DNA from: Alistipes sp.
GTDB taxonomy: Bacteria > Bacteroidota > Bacteroidia > Bacteroidales > Rikenellaceae
Length of the DNA stretch: 64,000 bases
Reading direction: 5' to 3'
Assembly: GCA_017474235.1 (NCBI GenBank)
Contig: JAFVIB010000002.1
Coordinates: forward strand, 70,445 to 134,444
The position numbers and the translations under genes were made by a program. Below the pieces are notes generated by a model that had not been told where the DNA came from, ran no database searches, and worked only from the letters and a program-made list of their open reading frames with translations. Below, piece after piece: positions 8,416 to 58,078 of this stretch (positions within the stretch are counted from its first letter, which is position 1; each line of letters opens with the position of its first letter).

Positions 8416-9711
8416 ATGGAAAAACTTAAGAAATTTTTGGTTGAGGATTGGGTAGTAACATTTCTCTCTATTCCACTCCTTATTATCGCAGGTTGTGCAA
8501 CACTGCTTCCAAAGGATGCATTTAAGATTTCATCTGATTTGCTGCAGGCTGAGTCTTGGATTAATATCGGAGCTCTCTTTGTAGTAGCACTCGTAGTTCT
8601 CTATGTGGGAAACAGACTCCTCTCTCGCCCGCTGAAGGGCCTTTTTTGGTCGTTTGTAGTGGTCTTTGCAGTGTCAATGTTGGCACAGCTCACTGCAAAA
8701 ATCGGATTCATCAAGGCTTGGGGCTTTGAGGCTGTATTCTTCTCTGTAATCTTCGGACTTATTATCCGCAACTTATTCCATATCCCCGATTGGCTTAAGC
8801 CAGCTATTCAGGGCGAGTTCTTTATCAAAATTGGTGTTGTCTGCCTCGGTGCGACAATCCTCTTCCGCGACTTCTTGGCTGCCGGCTCGTTGGCTCTTAT
8901 TCAGGGCTGCGTAGTTGTCTTTTGCGTGTGGATGTTCGCCTTCTTCCTCTCAAAGAAGATGGGCGTTGATGAGCGTAGCGCAATGACCCTCTCTTCAGGT
9001 CTGTCTATCTGCGGTGTATCAGCTTGTATTACCGCTGCCGGAGTTGCTAATACCGACGGTAAGAAGCTCTCATATATCGTCTCTGTGGTGCTCATTATCG
9101 TAGTACCTATGATATATATAATGCCATATTTGGCAAAGCTTGTCGTGCCACTGCTTACAGACGATGTGGCTATCCAGCAGGAGATTGCCGGTGCTTGGAT
9201 TGGCGGTACTGTCGATACTACAAGTGGCGTAGGTGCAGCCTCTGCAATATATAGCGATGAGGCAAATAAGATTGCAATGATTGTTAAGGCTACACAGAAT
9301 GTCCTTATCGGTGTTGTCGCATTCTTTATCGCCCTCTACCTCTCTTCAAAGAGCGCAGGCGACGGTAAACTCCACCGCCCATCATTGCGTATCGTTTGGG
9401 AGAAGTTCCCTAAGTTCGTACTCGGATTTATCCTCGCTTCAGCAGTATTCAGCCTCCTCCAGTCTTATGAGGTGTTCCCTGATTTCGCTGCTAAGAAGCT
9501 CTCTGAGACCGCTATGGCAAAGAACTTCTCAGGCTTCTTCTTCTCACTCGCATTCGTCTGTATCGGTATGGATACCCGCCTTAAGGATATCGTCTCAAAG
9601 GAGAATCGAAACATCCTCTACACCTTCCTCGGCGCACAGTTGTTTAATATCATCTTTACATTCTTTGCAGCGTGGATATTGTTTGGAATTGTGAAACCTC
9701 TCCTCTTCTAA
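8416..9711 (+). CDS. YeiH/putative sulfate exporter family membrane protein
   Basis: Polytopic; IKIGVVCLG, GLSICGVSACI and WIGGTVD motifs. Confidence 0.85.
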   Translation: MEKLKKFLVEDWVVTFLSIPLLIIAGCATLLPKDAFKISSDLLQAESWINIGALFVVALVVLYVGNRLLSRPLKGLFWSFVVVFAVSMLAQLTAKIGFIKAWGFEAVFFSVIFGLIIRNLFHIPDWLKPAIQGEFFIKIGVVCLGATILFRDFLAAGSLALIQGCVVVFCVWMFAFFLSKKMGVDERSAMTLSSGLSICGVSACITAAGVANTDGKKLSYIVSVVLIIVVPMIYIMPYLAKLVVPLLTDDVAIQQEIAGAWIGGTVDTTSGVGAASAIYSDEANKIAMIVKATQNVLIGVVAFFIALYLSSKSAGDGKLHRPSLRIVWEKFPKFVLGFILASAVFSLLQSYEVFPDFAAKKLSETAMAKNFSGFFFSLAFVCIGMDTRLKDIVSKENRNILYTFLGAQLFNIIFTFFAAWILFGIVKPLLF

Positions 9712-9729: not shown

Positions 9730-9788
9730 AAAAAACCAACAAAGGGCTGTACTGAATGTACTGCCCTTTGTTGGTTTTTTAGCCGAGC
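9730..9788. repeat. Core-only copy of the ~128-bp palindromic element
   Basis: 23-bp stem AAAAAACCAACAAAGGGCTGTAC / GTACTGCCCTTTGTTGGTTTTTT with one mismatch, then GCCGAGC; probably also the yeiH terminator. Confidence 0.75.
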
Positions 9789-9843
9789 CTTCACTGTTAC
9801 CACTGACGGTCTGAGCCATTGAAATCGAATTTTAGAAAAATGT

Positions 9844-10996: not shown

Positions 10997-11185
10997 AAAT
11001 TATTTGACGCAGCTACTATAAGCTGCTACCCTAAAAAATCAGCAATGGGCTATACGAGAGTATAGTCCATTGCTGATTTTTTAGCGCAAGTAATGTCTAT
11101 TTTGGTAGATATGGGCAAATTGATGGCAAATCGCAAAAAAATTACTATCTTTGCACTATATTGACGAAATGTGCGTTTCTTTAGT

Positions 11186-15291: not shown

Positions 15292-16320
<1,029 letters not shown>

Positions 16321-16321
16321 T

Positions 16322-16447
16322 ATTTGTTGTGATAATGTGCCATCTATGGCACATCCCTTAAATAGCAGTCGCGGCTGTACGCTTTAGTACTATCCGCGAC
16401 TGCTCTTTTTTACGATGTACCATACATAGCACATTCTGACAACAAAT
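16322..16447. repeat. 126-bp palindromic element, full unit
   Basis: Arms ATTTGTTGTGATAATGTGC / GCACATTCTGACAACAAAT; centre GCAGTCGCGGCTGTAC-GCTTTA-GTACTATCCGCGACTGC; begins 2 nt after the gap stop. Confidence 0.8.
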
Positions 16448-16557
16448 CTGCTTGCAAGTACTATCCAACGCCATCACCTTTTGTCGTTTTTTACGCTTTG
16501 TATGCACAATCACAGAAAATTTTTGTAACTTTGTGTAAGAAAAGTGGTTGATGAGCT

Positions 16558-18435
16558 ATGGTTGATAACTACACCCAACAGATAGACAAGAGTATCGGAG
16601 CTCTGTTTGACAGTATTTCGCAGCGATTTTCGGCGGATGATATGGTGCGCATTGAGCGTGCTTACCTGCTTGCAGCAGAGGCTCATTCGGATCAGCGACG
16701 AAAGAGTGGCGAGCCATATATTATCCATCCTATTGCGGTAGCACGAATTATCGCTGAGGAGTTGGAGCTTGGTGCCAATCCTATTATTGCGGCATTTCTG
16801 CACGATGTGGTCGAGGATACCGACTACACAATCGAGCAGATTCGTGAGCGTTTTGGCGATGATGTAGCCTTTTTGGTGGCTGCGGTGACAAAGCAGAAGA
16901 AGGCGAAGTATCAGCACTCAAAGCAGGTGGATAATTTCCGTCAGATTCTCGAATCTGTAAGTTTTGATATTCACGCTCTGCTCATCAAACTTGCCGACCG
17001 ATTGCATAATATGCGAACTCTGAACAGTATGCGCTCGGATAAGCAGATGAAGATTGCCGGCGAGACCGACTACTTCTATGCACCTCTTGCAAACCGTTTG
17101 GGTCTCTACCATATCAAGAGTGAGTTGGAGAATCTCTCTTTCCGCTACCGCTGTCCGCGTGACTATTCGGAGTTGTCGCAGATGGTGGAGAATGATATTG
17201 AGCAGAAGCGTCCGCATATCGAGGCTTTTATTGCCAAGATGGAGGAGATTTTGACTGCAAAGGGTCTTACTGCCCGTACAGAGGTGCGCTATCGTCGTCC
17301 GTACAGCATCTGGCGTAAGATGCAGGCAAAGCATTGCGATTTTAACCATGTTCCGGGTCGCCACTATATCCGTGTCATCTATCCCGATAGTGACGCCTAT
17401 TCAGAGAAGGAGTACGCGCTCAAGATATATGCAGCCCTGACAGACTACTTCAAGGAACGCCCGGGAAGTGTGTCAAACTATATCAACGCACCAAAGGAGA
17501 ATGGCTACCAATCTTTCCATGTCAAGCTGCTGCGTGAGCAGGGCGTGTGGGAGGAGATACATATCTCTTCTGAGCGAATGGTGCGTAATTCTCGCCTCGG
17601 TTGTGCCGCTGAGCGCACTGAGCAGAATGTCCATAAGTGGTTAGAGAAACTGAAGGCTATTGTGCGTGCCGATGTGTCAATGAGTGGTATTCAATTTATG
17701 GAGGGCGTCACCTCGTCGTTCTATAATGACGATATTATGGTTTTCACTCCAAAGGGTCAGGGTGTCATTCTTCCTAAAAATGCCACAGCTCTCGATTTCG
17801 CCTTTGAAATCCATAGCGATATCGGTCGCCACGCCCACTATGCCCGTATCAATGGTCGCCTATGCTCTGTCAAGACCCAACTTAATCGCGGCGACTGCAT
17901 CGAAATTGGCACAAATGACTCTATCCACCCACAGACAGATTGGTTAGGCTCCGTGCGAACTTTCAAGGCGAAAAAGTTCCTCCACTCCTACCTCGCCTCT
18001 CAGCCAAAGCTCGAGTATATCCGTTGTAAACACTGTCACCCACTGCCTGGTGATGAGGTTGTCGGTTTTAAGAGCGAAGATGGTACTATCACTCTCCATA
18101 AGAGAGGCTGCTCTACCGCTATACGCTTAGCTTCAGAGGAGGGTGATTCTATCGTCAATGACCTTACAACCTTTGAGGAGCGCGAAGATATGCTCTATCC
18201 CGTGCGTATTCGCATCCGCGGTATAGATAGATACCACCTCCTCTCAGACCTTATCTATTGTATCACCGAGCAATTGCAGCTCTCCATGTGTGGACTCTCC
18301 ACCGAAACCGCAGACCATATCGGCGTCTGTACTATCGACTTCGAAATCCACTCCCTCGGCGAACTCGAGGCTGCTCTGCGATCTATTGAGGCTATTGATG
18401 GTGTGGATGAGGTGTCGAGGATAGATATCGAATAA
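16558..18435 (+). CDS. Long RelA/SpoT homologue (HD-SYN-TGS-ZFD-ACT) with probably inactive synthetase
   Basis: RKSGEPYIIHP, LHDVVEDT and KLADRLHNMRTL (HD domain); PKENGYQSFH; TGS 'VFTPKG...ATALDFAFEIHS'; CKHCHPLPGD; ACT-like end. Confidence 0.9.
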   Translation: MVDNYTQQIDKSIGALFDSISQRFSADDMVRIERAYLLAAEAHSDQRRKSGEPYIIHPIAVARIIAEELELGANPIIAAFLHDVVEDTDYTIEQIRERFGDDVAFLVAAVTKQKKAKYQHSKQVDNFRQILESVSFDIHALLIKLADRLHNMRTLNSMRSDKQMKIAGETDYFYAPLANRLGLYHIKSELENLSFRYRCPRDYSELSQMVENDIEQKRPHIEAFIAKMEEILTAKGLTARTEVRYRRPYSIWRKMQAKHCDFNHVPGRHYIRVIYPDSDAYSEKEYALKIYAALTDYFKERPGSVSNYINAPKENGYQSFHVKLLREQGVWEEIHISSERMVRNSRLGCAAERTEQNVHKWLEKLKAIVRADVSMSGIQFMEGVTSSFYNDDIMVFTPKGQGVILPKNATALDFAFEIHSDIGRHAHYARINGRLCSVKTQLNRGDCIEIGTNDSIHPQTDWLGSVRTFKAKKFLHSYLASQPKLEYIRCKHCHPLPGDEVVGFKSEDGTITLHKRGCSTAIRLASEEGDSIVNDLTTFEEREDMLYPVRIRIRGIDRYHLLSDLIYCITEQLQLSMCGLSTETADHIGVCTIDFEIHSLGELEAALRSIEAIDGVDEVSRIDIE

Positions 18436-18712
18436 TTTTATCGTCAAAATGATTTTATCGTGAAAATAGCACAACTACTGCCGCTAACCTTTTTCTCCTC
18501 AATGGGCAGTACAATTCAGTACAGCCCATCGACTCGAAAAACGCCGAGCGTGGTATTTGCACTATTTTGACGATAAAATGGGTGCAAGAAATACGCATAG
18601 TATGTCCCTTCGCGGGTATTTTTGCCGAGCGTGGCATCTACCGCATTTTGACGACAAAATGGTGCAGAGTGTGAGCAGAGTACAACAAAATGGGTGCAAA
18701 CTATGAGCGGAG
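18435..18712. repeat. Mosaic of palindromic elements: full 128-bp unit at 18452-18579, right half-unit at 18588-18660, and arm fragments
   Basis: Arms ATTTTATCGTGAAAATAGCAC / GCACTATTTTGACGATAAAAT; CCGCTA...GGGCAGTAC-AATTCA-GTACAGCCC...GCCGAGCG. Confidence 0.85.
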
Positions 18713-18829
18713 TATTTGACTCCCTAACCCCCTATATAATATAATGACGGCATTGAGTACTGTAGATTTGGAGTTTTCGATTTTTATTTGTAACTTGCAG
18801 TTGATTAGTACAATAATAGGTGTCGGGTT

Positions 18830-19267
18830 ATGAAGAAGTTGTTATATTTATTACTTGGTATCCTTGGTTTTACCGCTTGTGGTGAGGGCGGAGCCGGAGG
18901 TGGTATGATGTGCGAGTATGGTACGCCGACAGCAGATTTTACAGTCAAGGGCAAGGTTACCGATGCAGATGGCAAGCCTATTAAGGGTATTGAAATATCG
19001 TCTAAGGATCTCAGATCATTTATTGATGGCTCGGGCTTGAGTGCCGAGACAGCCGAGGATGGAACATTTGTAACCAATAAAATAAAGGAGTTTGGTGTAG
19101 GTGGCACGCTTGTCTTTACCGATACAGACGGCGAGGCGAATGGCGGAGAGTTTGTGACGCTTGAGAAGCAGATTAGTACTCTTCCGCAGAAGCAGATAAA
19201 GGATGGAGAGAGGTGGTATCGTGGCGAGTATGAGGTTACTGCCGATGTAAAACTTAAAAAGAGGTAG
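18830..19267 (+). CDS. Radical-SAM-associated lipoprotein (TIGR04134-like)
   Basis: Lipobox FTAC, Gly-rich linker, MCEYGTP motif, then a beta-rich domain; two genes upstream of the rSAM/SPASM gene. Confidence 0.85.
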   Translation: MKKLLYLLLGILGFTACGEGGAGGGMMCEYGTPTADFTVKGKVTDADGKPIKGIEISSKDLRSFIDGSGLSAETAEDGTFVTNKIKEFGVGGTLVFTDTDGEANGGEFVTLEKQISTLPQKQIKDGERWYRGEYEVTADVKLKKR

Positions 19268-28620: not shown

Positions 28621-29652
28621 ATGGCAGAGTATAAATATACACCCGAGAGTTTTAAATCCGACCAGCAGGTAAAGTGGTGCGCCGGTTGTGGCGACCACGC
28701 AGTGCTGAATGCTGTGCAGCGCGCTCTGCCGGAGGTGGCAGATGCACTTGATAAGCCACACGAAAAGTTTGTCTTTGTGTCGGGTATCGGTTGCTCGTCG
28801 CGCTTTATCTACTATATGCGTACCTTCGGTTTTCACACCATCCACGGTCGTGCAGCAGCCGTTGCTACGGGTATAAAGGTTGCAAATCCGGACCTCTCCG
28901 TTTGGGTTTGTACAGGCGATGGAGATAGCCTTGCGATTGGAGGAAATCACTTTATACACGCTCTGCGTCGTAATGTCGATTTGAACATCATCCTCTTTAA
29001 TAACGAGATTTACGGTCTTACAAAGGGTCAGTACTCTCCAACCACAAAGCTCGGAACAGTGACCAAAACATCCCCTTATGGCACCGTCGAACACCCATTT
29101 AACCCTGGCGAGCTGGCTATCGGTGCAAAGGGTACATTCTTTGCCCGCACTGTCGATGCAGAGGTTATGCTCACTAAAGAGCTGCTTGTTGAGGCAGCAA
29201 AACACCGCGGAACATCAGTGGTTGAGGCACTTGTTAATTGTATGATTTTCAATAACAAAACTCACGCCTCATTTGCAGCCGATAAGGCTACTCGTGCCGA
29301 GCATACCATAACCCTCAAGCACGGCGAGAAGATGCTCTTCGGTGCAAATAAAGACAAGGGTCTTGTCCTTGAAGGTCTGAAACTTAAGGTCGTAACCGTT
29401 GGCGAAGATGGCTATACCCTCGACGATATTCTTACCCACGATGCACACTGTGAGGATACCACCCTCCACTGTATGCTCGCCGCAATGAAATACCCTGAAT
29501 ATCCCGTCGCTTTGGGTGTCATCCGCTCCGTCGATGAACCTTGCGTATATGACAACGAAGTCGCTGAACAACTCGCTGCAGTTAAGGCTGCTTCGAAGAT
29601 TCAGTGTGTGGATGACCTTCTTAACTCTGGCGAAATATTTATTTTATCGTGA
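28621..29652 (+). CDS. korB: 2-oxoacid:ferredoxin oxidoreductase beta subunit
   Basis: WCAGCGD, SGIGCSS, HTIHGR, GDGD and YGLTKGQYSPT motifs. Confidence 0.95.
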   Translation: MAEYKYTPESFKSDQQVKWCAGCGDHAVLNAVQRALPEVADALDKPHEKFVFVSGIGCSSRFIYYMRTFGFHTIHGRAAAVATGIKVANPDLSVWVCTGDGDSLAIGGNHFIHALRRNVDLNIILFNNEIYGLTKGQYSPTTKLGTVTKTSPYGTVEHPFNPGELAIGAKGTFFARTVDAEVMLTKELLVEAAKHRGTSVVEALVNCMIFNNKTHASFAADKATRAEHTITLKHGEKMLFGANKDKGLVLEGLKLKVVTVGEDGYTLDDILTHDAHCEDTTLHCMLAAMKYPEYPVALGVIRSVDEPCVYDNEVAEQLAAVKAASKIQCVDDLLNSGEIFILS

Positions 29653-29975
29653 TAATGCGGCATTTGCGCTTATAAGAGCACATCTGCTTCCGCTAACAAA
29701 AAGTACCCGCAAAGGGAAATACGCATAGTATGTCCCTTTGCGGGTATTTTTGCCGAGCGTTGCATCTGCACTCTTCTAAGCACAAATGAGTATTTTATCG
29801 TGATAGTGGCACATTTTCTGCCGCTACTCCAAAACTCGACAAAGGGCAGTACCGCAAAGTACAGCCCTTCGTCGTTTTTTGAAGCGAGCGTGGTAAATGC
29901 ACCACTCTGACGATAAAATGAGTGCAAGAAAGTATCAAAGTGCAAACTCTGACAACAAAATGGTGCGAACTATAG
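29641..29975. repeat. Tandem mosaic of two full 128-bp palindromic units (29661-29788 and 29792-29919) plus arm fragments
   Basis: Each unit is symmetric about its apical loop and carries CCGCTA...CGAGCG; the first arm fragment overlaps the korB stop codon. Confidence 0.85.
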
Positions 29976-30004
29976 TCGGAGTGAAATTCGAATTTCTGTT
30001 TTTT

Positions 30005-30125
30005 CGGATTTAGGAAAACCATCGTAGATGGTACAAGAAAAGATAGTCCTCTGAGGTCAAGCTCGCTTGAAACCGAAAGATGGACTATCTTTTCTTGTAA
30101 TAGCTGTAAGGCTATCCTAAATCCG
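30005..30125. other. Multi-branched foldback (candidate structured RNA or DNA cruciform)
   Basis: 11-bp stem at 30005-30015/30115-30125 and a perfect 18-bp stem at 30032-30049/30082-30099, with two side hairpins. Confidence 0.6.
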
Positions 30126-30214
30126 CAACGCATAGAAGAGAAACGCAGTTTCTCCGAAAGCTTTTTGCACGCCCTGCTTTTTCTCGAAAAAGCGGGCAGT
30201 ACTGCGTAGCTTGG

Positions 30215-31246
30215 TTATATCAGCTCCTCGTAGCGGGCGATAGGAGCGGCGTCGAGTGCGGAGAGTTCTCCGCGCAGGTAGCGGTAGTAGCCGGCAACGG
30301 CGATCATTGCGGCGTTATCTGTGGTAAATTTCAGTTCCGGAAGGAATGTGCGCCAATGGCGTTTTTGTCCCTCTGCCTCTATGCGGGCGCGGAGTGCCGA
30401 GTTGGCAGAAACTCCTCCGCCGAGGGCTATATCTTTTATACCGAACTCTTTGGATGCCTTGATAAGTTTATCCACTAAAATATCCACGACGGTATGGAGC
30501 AATGATGCGCATAGGTCTGCCTTATTCTGCTCTATAAAGTCCGGATTTTCAGCCACTTGGTCACGCAGCGTATAGAGGAAAGAGGTCTTAAGACCTGAGA
30601 AGGAGTAGTTAAGACCCTCTACGCGAGGTTTTGCAAACTTAAAGGCACTCTTATCGCCCTCTTTTGCGAGTCTGTCGATAACAGGTCCGCCTGGGTATGG
30701 CAGTCCCATAACCTTGGCGCACTTATCGAGAGCCTCGCCGGCTGCATCGTCTATTGTTGTGCCGACAATCTCCATCTTCTCGGGGGCATCGACCTTGACA
30801 ATCTGTGTATGACCTCCGCTGACAAGCAGGCAGAGGAACGGATAGTCGGGATGAGGTAGCTCTCTGTCCGGCAGATCGACAAAGTGTGAGAGAATATGTC
30901 CGTGGAGGTGGTTTACCTCGACCATCGGGATATTGCCCGCGATAGAGAGACCTTTGGCAAACGAAGTGCCGACCATAAGAGAGCCGAGCAGACCCGGACC
31001 GCGGGTAAAGGCTATGGCATCGATCTTATCGATAGTCACACCAGCCTCTTTGAGGGCTGTATCGACTACGGGAACGATATTCTGCTGGTGTGCGCGAGAG
31101 GCGAGCTCGGGGATTACTCCGCCGTACTTTTCGTGTACAGCCTGTGAGGCGATAACGCTGGATAACAGCGTGGTATCTCGCAGAACGGCAGCTGAGGTGT
31201 CGTCGCACGAAGATTCGATGCCGAGAATGATGATATTATTGTCCAT
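30215..31246 (-). CDS. tsaD: tRNA N6-adenosine threonylcarbamoyltransferase
   Basis: LGIESSCDDT, YGGVIPELASRAH, HLHGH, LVSGGHT and DNAAMIA motifs. Confidence 0.98.
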   Translation of the reverse strand: MDNNIIILGIESSCDDTSAAVLRDTTLLSSVIASQAVHEKYGGVIPELASRAHQQNIVPVVDTALKEAGVTIDKIDAIAFTRGPGLLGSLMVGTSFAKGLSIAGNIPMVEVNHLHGHILSHFVDLPDRELPHPDYPFLCLLVSGGHTQIVKVDAPEKMEIVGTTIDDAAGEALDKCAKVMGLPYPGGPVIDRLAKEGDKSAFKFAKPRVEGLNYSFSGLKTSFLYTLRDQVAENPDFIEQNKADLCASLLHTVVDILVDKLIKASKEFGIKDIALGGGVSANSALRARIEAEGQKRHWRTFLPELKFTTDNAAMIAVAGYYRYLRGELSALDAAPIARYEELI

Positions 31247-36632: not shown

Positions 36633-37034
36633 ATGGCAATTAAACGAGGTTCAAAAGTAGATAAATCCTTCTCCTCCTCGGCTATGACAGACTTGATGTT
36701 CTTGTTGCTTATCTTTATGATTATCGCAACAACGCTCATCAATCCTAATGCCCTGAAGTTGATGCTGCCAAAGAGTAGTAATCAGTTGAAGGATAAGGCA
36801 ATTACAACCGTCTCAATCGAAAAGACGGCTACCGGCTATAACTACTATGTAGAGCTCGACCGTGTTCCGGGTATCGGAGGCGTTGAGGCAGCTCTGCGCA
36901 CCCGCCTTGAGGGTCAGCAAGAGCCAACCATCTCTCTACATTGCGATAAAACCGTCGCAGTTGATGAGGTTGTCAAGGTGATGAATATCGCTAAGGATAA
37001 CGATTATCGTTTGATACTTGCAACCCAACCATAA
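36633..37034 (+). CDS. exbD: ExbD/TolR
   Basis: AMTDLMFLLLIFMII TM segment containing the catalytic Asp. Confidence 0.92.
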   Translation: MAIKRGSKVDKSFSSSAMTDLMFLLLIFMIIATTLINPNALKLMLPKSSNQLKDKAITTVSIEKTATGYNYYVELDRVPGIGGVEAALRTRLEGQQEPTISLHCDKTVAVDEVVKVMNIAKDNDYRLILATQP

Positions 37035-37153
37035 AATTGTTTTAAGGGGTGTTTACTGCCGCTAATCTTTTTCGCCTCAATGGGCAGTACATTCAGTACA
37101 GCCCATCGATGCGAAAAACACCGAGCGTTGTAAACCCCGCCTTAAAAGCAATT
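37035..37153. repeat. 119-bp palindromic element unit between exbD and tonB
   Basis: TGCCGCTA...GGGCAGTAC-ATTCA-GTACAGCCC...CCGAGCG, with distinct outer arms AATTGTTTTAAGGGGTGTTTAC / GTAAACCCCGCCTTAAAAGCAATT. Confidence 0.8.
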
Positions 37154-37199
37154 TTTGAGGCTAATCGGCTCATTAAGAAGAGCCAAAAGCAGAAAAACT

Positions 37200-54613: not shown

Positions 54614-56638
54614 ATGGTAACTTTGAACACTTTGAGAACCAAATTTGGCGTACTGCTCTCAGTAATTATTGCGGGCGCACTTTTGGCATTTATCTTCTCT
54701 CTGAAGACAGAGATGGGATTTTCGGGCAATGACCCTGAGGTCGGCTCAATTAATGGCGAGGAGATTCACTACTCTGAGTTCCTTGCTGCTTATGACGATG
54801 TTAAGTCTCAGATGGGTGAGATGACCACCGATGCACAGGCTCAGCAGGCTCTTGCAAATACTTGGCAGATTCTGCTCTCTGAGCGTGTGTTCAACCCTGC
54901 ATTTGAGGGTCTTGGTCTTGCAGTAGGCGAGGCAGAGCACAAGGCAATGGTTCGTGGTGAGGTGGCAAGCAATGTCTTTGGCAGCCTCTTTAGAGATCCA
55001 CAGACCGGCGAGTACAATGTTGAGGCTCTGACATCTTTCCTTGCAGAGGTTGAGAACAATCCACAGGCACAGAAGGCTTGGTCTTTCTTCAGCAAGCAGG
55101 CTGACCTTGACCGTGCGATGACTAAGTATCAGGCTCTTGTTCAGAAGGGTGCTTATGCAAATAAGCTCGAGGTTGAGCGTGGTGTGAAGAGCAGCAACAA
55201 CACCTATAACGGTCGTTATGTTGTAAGCCGTTACAACACCGTTGCAGACTCTCTTATCACTGTTTCTGACACTGAGATTAGAGATTACTATAAGGCTCAC
55301 AAGGCTCAGTACAAGCAGACCCCTTACCGCACAATCTCTTATGTAGAGTTTGAGGTTGTTCCTACCGAGGAGGATAAGGTTGCTGTTGAGGCAGAGGCAA
55401 AGGCAGCAGCAGCTGAGTTTGCTACTGTTCAGGATGTGAAGACCTACGCTCGTGAGAACCGTCACGCAGCAGTTGCTCCTACATATATCACCGCTGCACA
55501 GATGACTGCAGAGGAGAGCGAGGCTCTTGTTAAGGGTAAGATGTACGGTCCTGCTCTCGTCGCAGATGAGTGGCGCGCAGCTCGCGTGGTAGATGTTCGC
55601 AATGTTCCTGAGAAGCTCACTTTGAGCCACATCGTTCTTGACTACTCAGCTACAGAACTCGCTGACAGCCTTGTAAAGGTTGCAAAGAAGGGTGACTTCG
55701 CTGCTTTGGCAGCACAGCACTCTCTTATGGCAGAGACTGCTGCACAGGGTGGTAAGATTGGCGAGGTTACATACTCATCTCTTGCTCCTGAGTTCGCAGA
55801 TGCTCTCGTAGGTAAGAAGAAGGGCGATGTTGTGAAGATCTCTATGGGTAATGTTATCCAAATTGTAAAGGTTGATGCTGTAAACTCTATTCAGAAGCAC
55901 TATAAGGTTGCATCTCTGACATATCCGCTCGTAGCATCACAGCAGACTCAGCGTGATGTTCACAGTGCTGCAAGCCTCTTCGCTGTAAATGCAAAGAATG
56001 ACGGCTTTACTGAGACTGTAAACGCTCAGGGTCAATCTTCTCGCACTGCAACTATCGAGCAGGCTGCTCGCTCAGTGCGCGGTATCGATGCAAGTTCTCT
56101 TGAGGTTGTCTTCTGGGCTAATAAGGCTGAGGAGGGCGATGTTTCAGAGCTTATCAAGCTCGATAACAACCACTATGTAGTTGCTACACTCAACACTATC
56201 AACAATAACGACTATCGCACCGTAAATGAGGTTGCTTCTCAGATTAAGAGTACACTGCTCCGCGATAAGAAGTTCGAGCAGATTGCAGCTAAGATGACCG
56301 GCGCAACTATCGAGGAGATTGCTACAGCAGCTGAGGGTGAGGTTAAGAACTTCGAGAATGTTAAGTTTGATGCTTACTATATCCCTGGTATCGGTGTTGA
56401 ACCACGCATTCTTGGTGCAATCTCTGCACTTGAGCAGGGTGCTGTATCAGCTCCAATTAAGGGTGCAAGCGGCGTATATGTAGTTGTTACCGACGCAGTA
56501 ACCGCTGCTGACGAGGCTCAGACCTTCGAGGCAGAGAAGGTTAAGCAGCAGGCTGAGGCTGAGCAGAATGCAAACCGTGCATTCTATGCAGTTCAGGAGG
56601 CGGCAGAGGTTGTTGATAATACTGTAGGCTACTTCTAA
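54614..56638 (+). CDS. ppiD: PpiD/SurA-N peptidyl-prolyl isomerase chaperone
   Basis: N-terminal TM, SurA N-domain and parvulin-like 'SHIV...FAALAAQHS...GGKIG'. Confidence 0.82.
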   Translation: MVTLNTLRTKFGVLLSVIIAGALLAFIFSLKTEMGFSGNDPEVGSINGEEIHYSEFLAAYDDVKSQMGEMTTDAQAQQALANTWQILLSERVFNPAFEGLGLAVGEAEHKAMVRGEVASNVFGSLFRDPQTGEYNVEALTSFLAEVENNPQAQKAWSFFSKQADLDRAMTKYQALVQKGAYANKLEVERGVKSSNNTYNGRYVVSRYNTVADSLITVSDTEIRDYYKAHKAQYKQTPYRTISYVEFEVVPTEEDKVAVEAEAKAAAAEFATVQDVKTYARENRHAAVAPTYITAAQMTAEESEALVKGKMYGPALVADEWRAARVVDVRNVPEKLTLSHIVLDYSATELADSLVKVAKKGDFAALAAQHSLMAETAAQGGKIGEVTYSSLAPEFADALVGKKKGDVVKISMGNVIQIVKVDAVNSIQKHYKVASLTYPLVASQQTQRDVHSAASLFAVNAKNDGFTETVNAQGQSSRTATIEQAARSVRGIDASSLEVVFWANKAEEGDVSELIKLDNNHYVVATLNTINNNDYRTVNEVASQIKSTLLRDKKFEQIAAKMTGATIEEIATAAEGEVKNFENVKFDAYYIPGIGVEPRILGAISALEQGAVSAPIKGASGVYVVVTDAVTAADEAQTFEAEKVKQQAEAEQNANRAFYAVQEAAEVVDNTVGYF

Positions 56639-56658
56639 ATTTTGGAATTATAAGGCAG

Positions 56659-56869
56659 CATTTGCGCATATAAGAGCGCACCTGCTTCCGCTAACAAAAA
56701 ATGCTGACAATGGCTGTACGCTTTAGTACTATCCATCGTCAGCATTTTTTGCCGAGCGTGGCATCTGCACTCTTCTAAGCACAAATGAGTGCAAGACAGA
56801 GACGGAGTACAATCTCTGACAAAGGGCAGTACCGCAAGTACAGCCCTTCGCTGTTTTATATGCCGAGCC
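56659..56869. repeat. Palindromic element mosaic: full 129-bp unit at 56659-56787 plus core at 56815-56869
   Basis: Outer arms nearly identical to 29661-29788; apical core identical to the 16322 unit; second core GGGCAGTAC-CGCAA-GTACAGCCC...GCCGAGC. Confidence 0.85.
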
Positions 56870-57093
56870 TGATATTTATACTGCGTTAGCAAAGTCCCCC
56901 TCACAGGAGGGGGATTTAGGGGGTGGGTAACACAAAAGGTGGTGGAGGCCGAAGGCCATACCACCACTATATTAAAAGCAAAGCACTCACCTCGATTAAA
57001 GGCAAGTGCTTGCGGAATGTATTAAAAGTCTAATGTGGACTATTTGCTCATATAGCTTTTAATATATTGCACTTTAAGGTATAACTAAATATA

Positions 57094-57852: not shown

Positions 57853-58010
57853 GAAATTTATTTTGATTGAGCAAGAAATAGTTTAGGGATTATAGGGCTT
57901 ATAGGGTTTATAGTAAATACCTCCATATAATCCCCACCCCTCCATAACCCCTATTGGAGCGTAGCGAGAAGCCCCCTTTACAGAAAGGGGGTTTGGGGGA
58001 TAGGTAACAC

Positions 58011-58078
58011 AAAAAGTGGTGGAATTTTTTCCACCACTATATTAAAAGCAACAAAGGCTTCCCGAAGGAAGCCTTTGT
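58011..58078 (-). terminator. Tandem terminator hairpins downstream of the CoA-transferase
   Basis: ACAAAGGCTTCC-CGAA-GGAAGCCTTTGT (58051-58078) and AGTGGTGGAA-TTTT-TTCCACCACT (58015-58038), the latter with a minus-strand U-tract. Confidence 0.7.

Follow-up and report, generated by a model that had tools for sequence, protein, structure and literature searches.

The 64-kb stretch of DNA analysed here (hereafter the window; positions 70445-134444 of contig C24) belongs to a 1.97-Mb, 98.9% complete genome of Alistipes sp. and carries, behind several of its genes, members of a high-copy family of imperfect palindromes of about 125 nucleotides (nt), all on the forward strand. Behind a RelA/SpoT-type gene (16558-18435, identified by its Pfam domains), a 16-nt remnant of a unit arm (TTTTATCGTCAAAATG, 18436-18451) abuts the TAA stop codon and is followed by a full 128-nt unit (18452-18579) with a CCGCTA...CGAGCG frame and a GGGCAGTAC apex, a 3' half unit in tandem (18588-18660; model positions 54-125) and a tail of reduced mini-units, GGTGCA...ACAACAAAAT and GGGTGCAAACTATGAGCGGAG (18661-18712). 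Upstream of this gene, a full unit of a CACATCC subtype (16322-16447) starts 2 nt past the TAG stop of the glyceraldehyde-3-phosphate dehydrogenase gene (15304-16320). The stop (29650-29652) of the gene for the beta subunit of a 2-oxoacid:ferredoxin oxidoreductase (28621-29652) is overlapped by a 5' arm remnant (29641-29660), behind which two full units stand head to tail with a 3-nt linker; the first (29661-29788) has ATTTGCGC arms, a GGGAAATAC apex and a terminator-like core of A-run, hairpin and T-run, and the second (29792-29919) is followed by a tail mini-unit, TGAGTGCAAGAAAGTATCAAAGTGCAAACTCTGACAA... (29920-29960). The stop (56636-56638) of a SurA/rotamase-domain (PpiD-like) gene (54614-56638) is abutted by another 5' arm remnant (56639-56658), after which come a full unit with ATTTGCGC arms and a GGCTGTAC apex (56659-56787) and a partial unit (56815-56881; model positions 43-109). 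A full unit of a second arm class, with the variant outer arms AATTGTTTTAAGGGG...CCCCGCCTTAAAAGCAATT (37035-37153), lies between an open reading frame (ORF) of 133 amino acids (36633-37034) and another beginning at 37155, and is therefore probably inside an operon. A partial unit consisting of the core only (9731-9790, C24:80175-80234; model positions 39-98) is found 19 nt past the stop of a 431-amino-acid gene (8416-9711), and a second partial unit lies at 11007-11085 (C24:81451-81529; model positions 17-91).

Copies were searched for with an nhmmer profile built from the six full units of a first-pass annotation of the window and iterated once on the 1.97-Mb genome. All nine window copies listed in that annotation were recovered, with ends 1-10 nt from those given there, together with a tenth, the partial unit at 11007-11085, which was absent from its list. 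The large genome-wide family that it had predicted from the window alone is indeed present, with 137 non-overlapping copies at 97 loci, 92 of them full length and with a length mode of 123-127 nt. The loci comprise 69 single units and 28 head-to-tail arrays of two to five units, arrays of mixed orientation being absent (0), and the copies are scattered across 24 contigs, behind housekeeping genes. Many contigs of this metagenome bin, and of other samples, terminate within units (for example, C2:2, C25:14, C49:28, C35:438, C40:245 and C42:13785), so that the copy number is a lower bound and the family itself fragments assemblies. The ORFs of about 90-160 amino acids that span arrays are artefacts. 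After the last full unit of most arrays we also observe 42-nt mini-units (TGGTGCAA...CTGACGATAAAA), often one to three in tandem, which in the window occupy 18661-18712, 29920-29960 and 56788-56822; they look like units with an internal deletion.

Each of the six full window units is predicted to fold as a single long imperfect hairpin, as had been proposed from its symmetry about the midpoint, with energies of -47.6 to -63.6 kcal/mol as against about -21 to -28 kcal/mol for shuffled versions (z-scores of -7.5 to -10.9; none of 200 shuffles folds as well). Covariation of the stems was assessed on 55 distinct copies, aligned under a consensus of 50 pairs; 81.9% of the cells are paired, compared with 33-49% when the 3' partners are slid by one to three columns; changes on both sides occur in 38 of the 50 pairs, and none of 500 shuffles attains any of the observed measures. 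The aligned copies are paralogues, hence not independent events, and the signal arises from several unrelated stem sequences; the compensatory changes nonetheless bear out the covarying stems seen earlier in the window. The internal-loop frame CCGCTA...CGAGCG, which the first-pass annotation took to be an invariant asymmetric motif, is common, being found in 76 of the 87 distinct full copies, but not invariant, since CACATCC...ACGATGCACC replaces it in seven copies and GCGTT...GTGTGCC in three. Similarly, an apical GTAC-loop-GTAC is nearly universal provided that GTAT variants are admitted on either side (GTAC/GTAT-loop-GTAC/GTAT), while the single fixed mismatch ascribed to it, at the fifth pair (A.A, A.G or C.T), is kept in the three main apex types, as read by eye and not tallied copy by copy.

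The modules of the unit are exchangeable. The two commonest types of outer arm each pair with all three main apex types and the third arm type with two, nine hybrid units combine the 5' arm of one type with the 3' arm of another, and 28 of the 97 loci are arrays, in agreement with the shuffled arms, middles and cores and the tandem mosaics described from the window. The feet of the units read TTTT(G/A)T(T/C)GTGA at the 5' end and CTGAC(A/G)A(C/T)AAAA|T at the 3' end, and the base preceding a unit is A in 54 of 78 first units (69%) and in 19 of 22 internal units (86%); with this A before and T after the unit, the palindrome really reads A|TTTT...AAAA|T. Within an unchanged frame, the apex type GGCTGTAC...GTACTATCC resembles the reverse complement, that is, a flipped version, of GGGCAGTAC...GTACAGCCC (compare window positions 9730-9788, 16371-16395 and 56712-56734 with 18504 and 29844), a sequence relationship that would fit an inversion of the hairpin tip. 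Outside the window, a long variant of about 240 nt (C24:68431-68700, C35:295617-295900, C15:50130-50415 and others) has the 3' arm and the CCGAGCG motif in common with the 125-nt unit and encloses about 170 nt of other conserved sequence.

The units are placed at stop codons. Using a simple ORF-based set of 1,605 genes (91% of the genome coding, ORFs made of repeats removed), a co-oriented gene lies on the 5' side of the unit at 82 of 92 loci, and at 70 of these 82 the first unit is at most 24 nt from the stop codon of that gene or overlaps it. Twenty-two units begin directly after the stop codon, and at seven loci the ORF ends 11 nt within the unit, as would be expected from the in-frame TGA of TTTTGTTGTGA. 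The spoT frame of other species enters the unit and terminates at its TGA, while species with an empty site end a few codons differently. The same abutment of stop codons is seen in a second species of the genus (G127). Tandem contexts number 42 in the same direction and 5 in the reverse, and the units avoid divergent spacers. An adaptation of the A/T tracts of the core to convergent gene pairs was considered and discarded, as these tracts do not differ between convergent and tandem gene contexts.

A second polarity relates the units to replication, for whose direction GC skew served as a proxy on the contigs and was checked in one finished genome. The orientation of the units equals the sign of the local GC skew at 76 of 81 loci (p = 2e-17), compared with only 60% for genes, and among genes with a sense unit at their stop 49 are leading-strand and one is lagging-strand (odds ratio 32, p = 1e-9). 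Lagging-strand genes make up 40% of the total and hardly ever bear a unit, so that a link to genes is not by itself enough to account for this polarity. The agreement with skew recurs in G127 (13 of 15 loci) and in a finished 3.8-Mb congener, whose skew is negative up to about 1.8 Mb and mostly positive beyond that point and in which eight of nine unambiguous copies conform to the skew.

The third polarity lies in the fold itself. The bottom strand of the unit, antisense to the gene, is the more stable one in 83 of 87 copies when folded with RNA parameters and in all 87 with DNA parameters, with mean folding energies of -60.6 kcal/mol for the bottom and -49.2 kcal/mol for the top strand. Copies of other species behave alike (22 of 23, 26 of 26 and 16 of 18), bringing the total across species to 147 of 154 full copies, and so does each of five divergent palindromes missed by the profile. 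A.C cells are more frequent than G.U cells on the top strand (146 vs 86). This strand serves as mRNA and as lagging-strand template alike, and the bottom strand, which folds better, is the leading-strand template. A mutational bias was rejected by reasoning as the source of this asymmetry, as C-to-T change on the exposed top strand would give G.T there, the opposite of what is observed; because strand-biased deamination predicts the opposite asymmetry, we attribute it to selection, which we take as either favouring the fold of the bottom strand or keeping the helix of the top strand interrupted. The first-pass annotation did not contain these three rules, namely that the units sit at the stop codon, are restricted to the leading strand and fold better in antisense, which are the most informative features of the family.

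What occupies gene ends without a unit was examined in the same genome and in its relatives. The empty orthologous sites inspected hold plain terminators made of a hairpin plus a T run, and genome-wide a strict terminator pattern follows 37% of the gene ends that are free of units, 11% of those with a unit and 10% of array ends. In 55 of 87 units (about 63%), the core hairpin is followed by a run of four or more T, and 46 of the 55 have a matching A run before the hairpin. When one stem mismatch is allowed, terminator-like cores are found in 36 units in the sense and 39 in the antisense direction, and a consensus terminator scan flags no unit. An antisense promoter in the 3' tail was also considered and is ruled out, the reverse complement of the Bacteroidetes -7 box TAnnTTTG being present in 0 of 69 tails.

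Comparison of 13 unit-bearing gene ends with their orthologues in 14 congeners reveals patchy occupancy, some ends being filled in three or four species and one locus being occupied only in the genome of the window, where the unit separates two genes that are neighbours elsewhere. When a site is filled in several species, the units there have arms typical of each species and differ in their inner modules (TTTTCGCGTGA in G014 and TTTTTTCGTGAAAAG in G127), a pattern that suggests homogenisation or repeated replacement. Around spoT and gap, gene order changes between strains and species exactly at the units, and strains with an identical SpoT protein vary in the number and type of units upstream of spoT. 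For example, the window holds a single unit in 16290-16560, and a sequence with an identical SpoT (L004:1-548) has a different upstream gene, an inverted unit, a full unit and two 3' half units before it rejoins the window about 70 nt upstream of the TAACTTTG box that precedes the spoT start. Downstream of the units, window positions 18720-18760 differ from two further sequences (L002 and L003) by an insertion or deletion of 61 nt, and behind this repeat spacer a 145-amino-acid gene (18830-19267, no Pfam match) with an ORF of 52-53 amino acids behind it is conserved in all strains (L001-L003). No strain-level empty site was found, conspecific contigs being either identical or ending within repeats. 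The flanks show only the A before and the T after the unit, with no direct repeat visible, and no clean pair of an empty and a filled site close enough to read a target-site duplication was found.

Almost all relatives of the SpoT protein are found in metagenome bins from the guts of ruminants and humans, labelled Alistipes or Rikenellaceae. Of 24 species sampled from the same GTDB genus, a covariance model of the element (R1) detects it in 15; eight of these, including that of the window, carry from 59 to at least 86 copies by this model. The model also detects the element in six of 31 genera of a wider sample of the family, and it finds none in 16 other sampled families of Bacteroidales. Species negative with R1 can still show palindromes of about 120 nt and of other sequence at the same stop codons, and hence the superfamily is wider than the model detects. 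Against Rfam, the window gives no match at the gathering score, and a permissive scan returned only chance-level microRNA and small-RNA matches (E-values 0.06-0.9). A blastn search (word size 11) with two units and a tail against 5,426 complete E. coli genomes found no match, phage and plasmid searches found no element, and three matches of the apex motif on viral contigs are chance occurrences in unrelated sequence. We found no publication that describes the family. A catalogue of RNA candidates from the microbiome lists anonymous palindromic candidates from Alistipes (Fremin and Bhatt 2021, PMC8040213), which may overlap with the family. The UG27 hairpin arrays (bioRxiv 10.64898/2026.09.22.753630) are not comparable, as they sit in prophages beside a reverse transcriptase. 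The suggestion that the family had not been described for this lineage thus stands within these searches.

Other repeat families share the spacers with the units. A second family of about 210-215 nt, with several nested hairpins (CGGATTTAGG...CCTAAATCCG, GAGAAACGCAGTTTCTC and GCCCTGCTTTTTCTCGAAAAAGCGGGC), is present in the window at 29997-30210 and at least at eight other loci of the genome. In the two copies read, its far end lies against, or about 10 nt from, the stop codon of a convergent gene on the opposite strand (30215-31246 in the case of the window copy). Each of the nine copies scored follows GC skew in its orientation, there is hardly any difference in folding between the two strands (-81.5 vs -82.2 kcal/mol), and relatives of this family follow spoT in other species. 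A module of about 190 nt (GTAATTAGTGGTAGATAGCG...TAATTTGCACCTCGGAGCATAGGAGG...CCCCCTTTGCCAAAGGGGGATTTAGGGGG) occurs in nine copies on contigs C7, C14, C24, C35, C40 and C49, and related hairpins lie in the window at 56892-56946 and 57969-58023. As this module usually stands between the 125-nt units and the second family, the mosaic of convergent spacers has a fixed order.

A partner enzyme was sought in the genome of the window and in its congeners. The first-pass annotation had suggested looking for a RAYT/TnpA (Y1) gene flanked by the element. Y1/RAYT proteins (PF01797) are absent (0) from the genome of the window and from all 15 element-bearing congeners, the sole match lying in a genome without copies (G004); a RAYT or IS200 partner was rejected on this ground. 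Reverse transcriptases (PF00078) are absent from the genome of the window and from five other genomes with at least 59 copies, IS110 transposases (PF01548) from the genome of the window and the high-copy genomes searched, and DDE_Tnp_1 (PF01609) and rve (PF00665) from all of the latter except G008, which has one of each; these enzymes, too, were discarded as partners, being absent from the genome of the window and most high-copy genomes. Tyrosine recombinases (PF00589) number five in the genome of the window; G013, with its 59 copies, has just two, both of Xer size, and genomes with no copies also carry two Xer-size recombinases, which excludes an integron-type or other dedicated tyrosine recombinase as a correlate. 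In the nhmmer copy set, no separated pair of arms encloses a gene. The transposase searches covered PF01609, PF00665, PF01548 and PF01797 and, among transposase families, these only, and bins can lose copies of insertion sequences.

The analogy with ERIC, REP/BIME and RAYT-bound hairpins drawn earlier for the window holds in copy number, covariation and shuffled modules, and is a likeness in kind only, RAYT being absent. ERIC (or IRU) sequences of Enterobacteriaceae and Vibrio, imperfect palindromes of about 127 bp, are nearly equal in length to the Alistipes units, form one long imperfect hairpin, occur in dozens to hundreds of copies in intergenic, transcribed regions near gene ends and have no transposase of their own. 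However, none of the E. coli genomes searched contains anything similar in sequence, the Alistipes family belongs to a different phylum, and, unlike ERIC, which is found in either orientation, it is polar with respect to both gene and replication and forms head-to-tail arrays and mosaics. REP/BIME and REPIN-RAYT systems of E. coli and Pseudomonas also consist of gene-end palindromes conserved in structure, with ordered mosaic clusters and compensatory stem changes, and REPIN doublets likewise form hairpins of about 100 nt, but the Alistipes arrays are all direct rather than alternating, the unit is one 125-bp hairpin instead of two REPs of 20-40 nt, and no RAYT/Y1 gene accompanies it; a GTAG/CGTC foot tag was not noticed on reading the copies, although no pattern search for it was made. 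The attC sites, in particular the Vibrio cholerae repeats (VCR, 123-126 bp), resemble the units in size, in conservation of shape over sequence, in conserved unpaired bases, in sense placement just behind ORFs and in a better-folding bottom strand that is the leading-strand template. They differ in that the Alistipes units are dispersed behind housekeeping genes and form tandems without cassettes, with no integron integrase and no R/L core boxes, the R''/L''...L'/R' arrangement with GTTRRRY at the 3' end not being present at the unit termini. Correia (NEMIS) elements of Neisseria and the pneumococcal RUP and BOX elements are similarly non-autonomous inverted repeats of 100-150 bp that are co-transcribed with neighbouring genes and can function in termination or processing. 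The terminal inverted repeats of Correia elements are well defined and come with a TA duplication, and these elements occur in both orientations, whereas for the strictly polar Alistipes family neither a duplication nor a related insertion sequence was found. In view of the enzymes that were not found, we reject membership in the REP/REPIN-RAYT, attC and classical miniature inverted-repeat transposable element (MITE) families, whose working principles remain possible analogies.

The copy number, covariation and module shuffling support the earlier description of a structure-selected, modular and non-autonomous repeated element. Building on these, and on the anatomy, the placement, both polarities, the folding asymmetry, the variable occupancy and the absence of the usual enzymes, we propose, with a probability of roughly one half, that the family is a lineage-specific mosaic repeat of the REP/ERIC/BIME-like kind, though homologous to none of these, which occupies a gene-end niche and on whose single-stranded fold selection acts. 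It is a family-wide non-coding repeat of Rikenellaceae, mostly of the Alistipes type, made of exchangeable outer arms, an internal-loop frame, A/T tracts and an apical GTAC hairpin, with units single or head to tail and followed by the reduced 42-nt mini-units and other repeat modules. Lying at, or a few bases past, a co-oriented stop codon, the unit is presumably transcribed as the 3' end of that gene, where the hairpin would act as a transcript-end, stabiliser or insulator structure that replaces the ordinary hairpin-plus-T terminator. Copies are retained nearly exclusively where the weaker fold falls on the lagging-strand template and the better one on the leading-strand template; this polarity can be read as selection against hairpin extrusion on exposed single-stranded DNA, a long palindrome being tolerated only where the exposed lagging-strand template carries the weaker fold, or as the trace of a single-strand insertion route. 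Homogenisation within species and turnover between species may proceed through recombination or gene conversion among units or through some enzyme acting in trans. That the unit is transcribed, that it works as a terminator or stabiliser and why it is polar with replication are matters of inference, and we hold the functional part of the account with moderate confidence. The most economical account is that the gene-end position of about a tenth of the leading-strand genes has been taken over by a repeat. Several observations speak against this reading. The replication polarity rests on GC skew as a proxy and on one finished genome. The excess of A.C over G.U on the sense strand, the reverse of what is expected under selection on the mRNA, suggests that the structure under selection may not be the mRNA. 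A terminator role is not universal, as a T run behind the core is confined to the 55 units noted above, terminator-like cores occur no more often in sense than in antisense and the simple scan flags none. Species-specific arms and patchy occupancy are also expected of an active selfish element, and most of the genomes are metagenome bins that break at repeats and may lack transposase genes present in several copies.

The main rival is a selfish mobile element of single-stranded DNA, of the REPIN or IS200/IS605 'peel and paste' kind, whose enzyme is yet unrecognised and whose substrate is the hairpin; insertion into the single-stranded DNA of the fork at A|T junctions, which are often supplied by stop codons, would fix the orientation, and selection would purge the other insertions. 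It explains the replication polarity (76 of 81, 13 of 15 and 8 of 9) and the rapid turnover well, IS200/IS605 elements being likewise oriented with replication (PMC5027513, PMC3333891), and it fits the consistently better fold of one strand, the species-specific arms, patchy occupancy and head-to-tail arrays, the A preceding most first and internal units and the differing number of upstream units among strains of identical SpoT. Yet Y1 HUH/RAYT proteins occur in no element-bearing genome and in one zero-copy genome, reverse transcriptase and IS110 are absent from the high-copy genomes searched and DDE_Tnp_1 and rve are confined to G008, neither a target-site duplication nor a clean empty/filled pair was found, the element was not found in phages, plasmids or viral contigs, and the better-folding strand is on the leading-strand template, whereas the active strand of the IS608 type is on the lagging-strand template; we regard such an element as distinctly less probable, at somewhat above one chance in five. 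A motif acting in the sense RNA appears more doubtful still. It would be a protein-binding or processing element of the 3' untranslated region, recognised in the mRNA through the loop CCGCUAAC / GCCGAGCG and the apical mismatch, whose helix is interrupted by A.C mismatches, for example to escape RNase III, the antisense fold and the leading-strand bias being by-products. The sense orientation and the abutment of stop codons at 70 of 82 loci, the asymmetric loop motifs and the fixed-position mismatch kept in the main subtypes, and the probable intra-operon position of some units (such as 37035-37153) would all suit it, and REP elements at most 15 nt from a stop codon are said, in work by Liang, Rudd and Deutscher of 2015, to affect translation in E. 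coli; but the 49:1 ratio of leading to lagging genes far exceeds any expression bias when 40% of genes are on the lagging strand, and two unrelated variants replace the frame motif in 10 of 87 copies.

Folded attC-like sites, at which a site-specific recombinase, possibly the host Xer pair, would shuffle genes or modules and whose recombinogenic bottom strand would stay on the leading-strand template, as it does in chromosomal integrons, would account for the VCR-like size (123-127 bp), the imperfect dyad, the conservation of shape over sequence and of unpaired positions, the sense position directly behind ORFs, the better-folding bottom strand on the leading-strand template and the changes of gene order around spoT and gap exactly at units. 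Dispersal behind housekeeping genes with no cassette array, TTTT...AAAA termini with no RYYYAAC/GTTRRRY boxes, the frequency of tandem units without genes and the lack of an extra tyrosine recombinase that tracks the element (G013 has two of Xer size for its 59 copies) make this highly improbable. A more speculative possibility, which we rate about as low as the sense-RNA motif, is that the units and the other polar repeat families of Bacteroidales are substrates of an uncharacterised single-stranded DNA hairpin system without Y1, reverse transcriptase, IS110 or integron integrase, in which the bottom strand is the active one and the position is set by the mechanism rather than by later selection, for instance through insertion or templated copying at gene ends where replication and transcription are co-directional. 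Such a system, if real, would offer a new way of assembling and exchanging gene-end modules.

REP, ERIC and similar repeats were discovered decades ago, yet how they spread and what they do is settled only where a RAYT is present. As a REP/ERIC-like repeat, the Alistipes family is of a kind already familiar, though the family itself is new and its polarity unusually strict. In practical terms, it breaks metagenome assemblies at gene ends and yields false ORFs, and the covariance model can be used to mask it in Rikenellaceae genomes. It provides a high-copy hairpin family in small genomes of gut bacteria that have almost no transposases, and three quantitative rules, each of them testable: the units lie at the stop codon, they lie almost exclusively behind leading-strand genes, and the strand that is not the mRNA folds better. 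The last of these suggests that the selected structure may be DNA rather than RNA, which bears directly on a long-standing question, namely whether repeats of this sort act as genomic parasites, as gene-end devices or as both.

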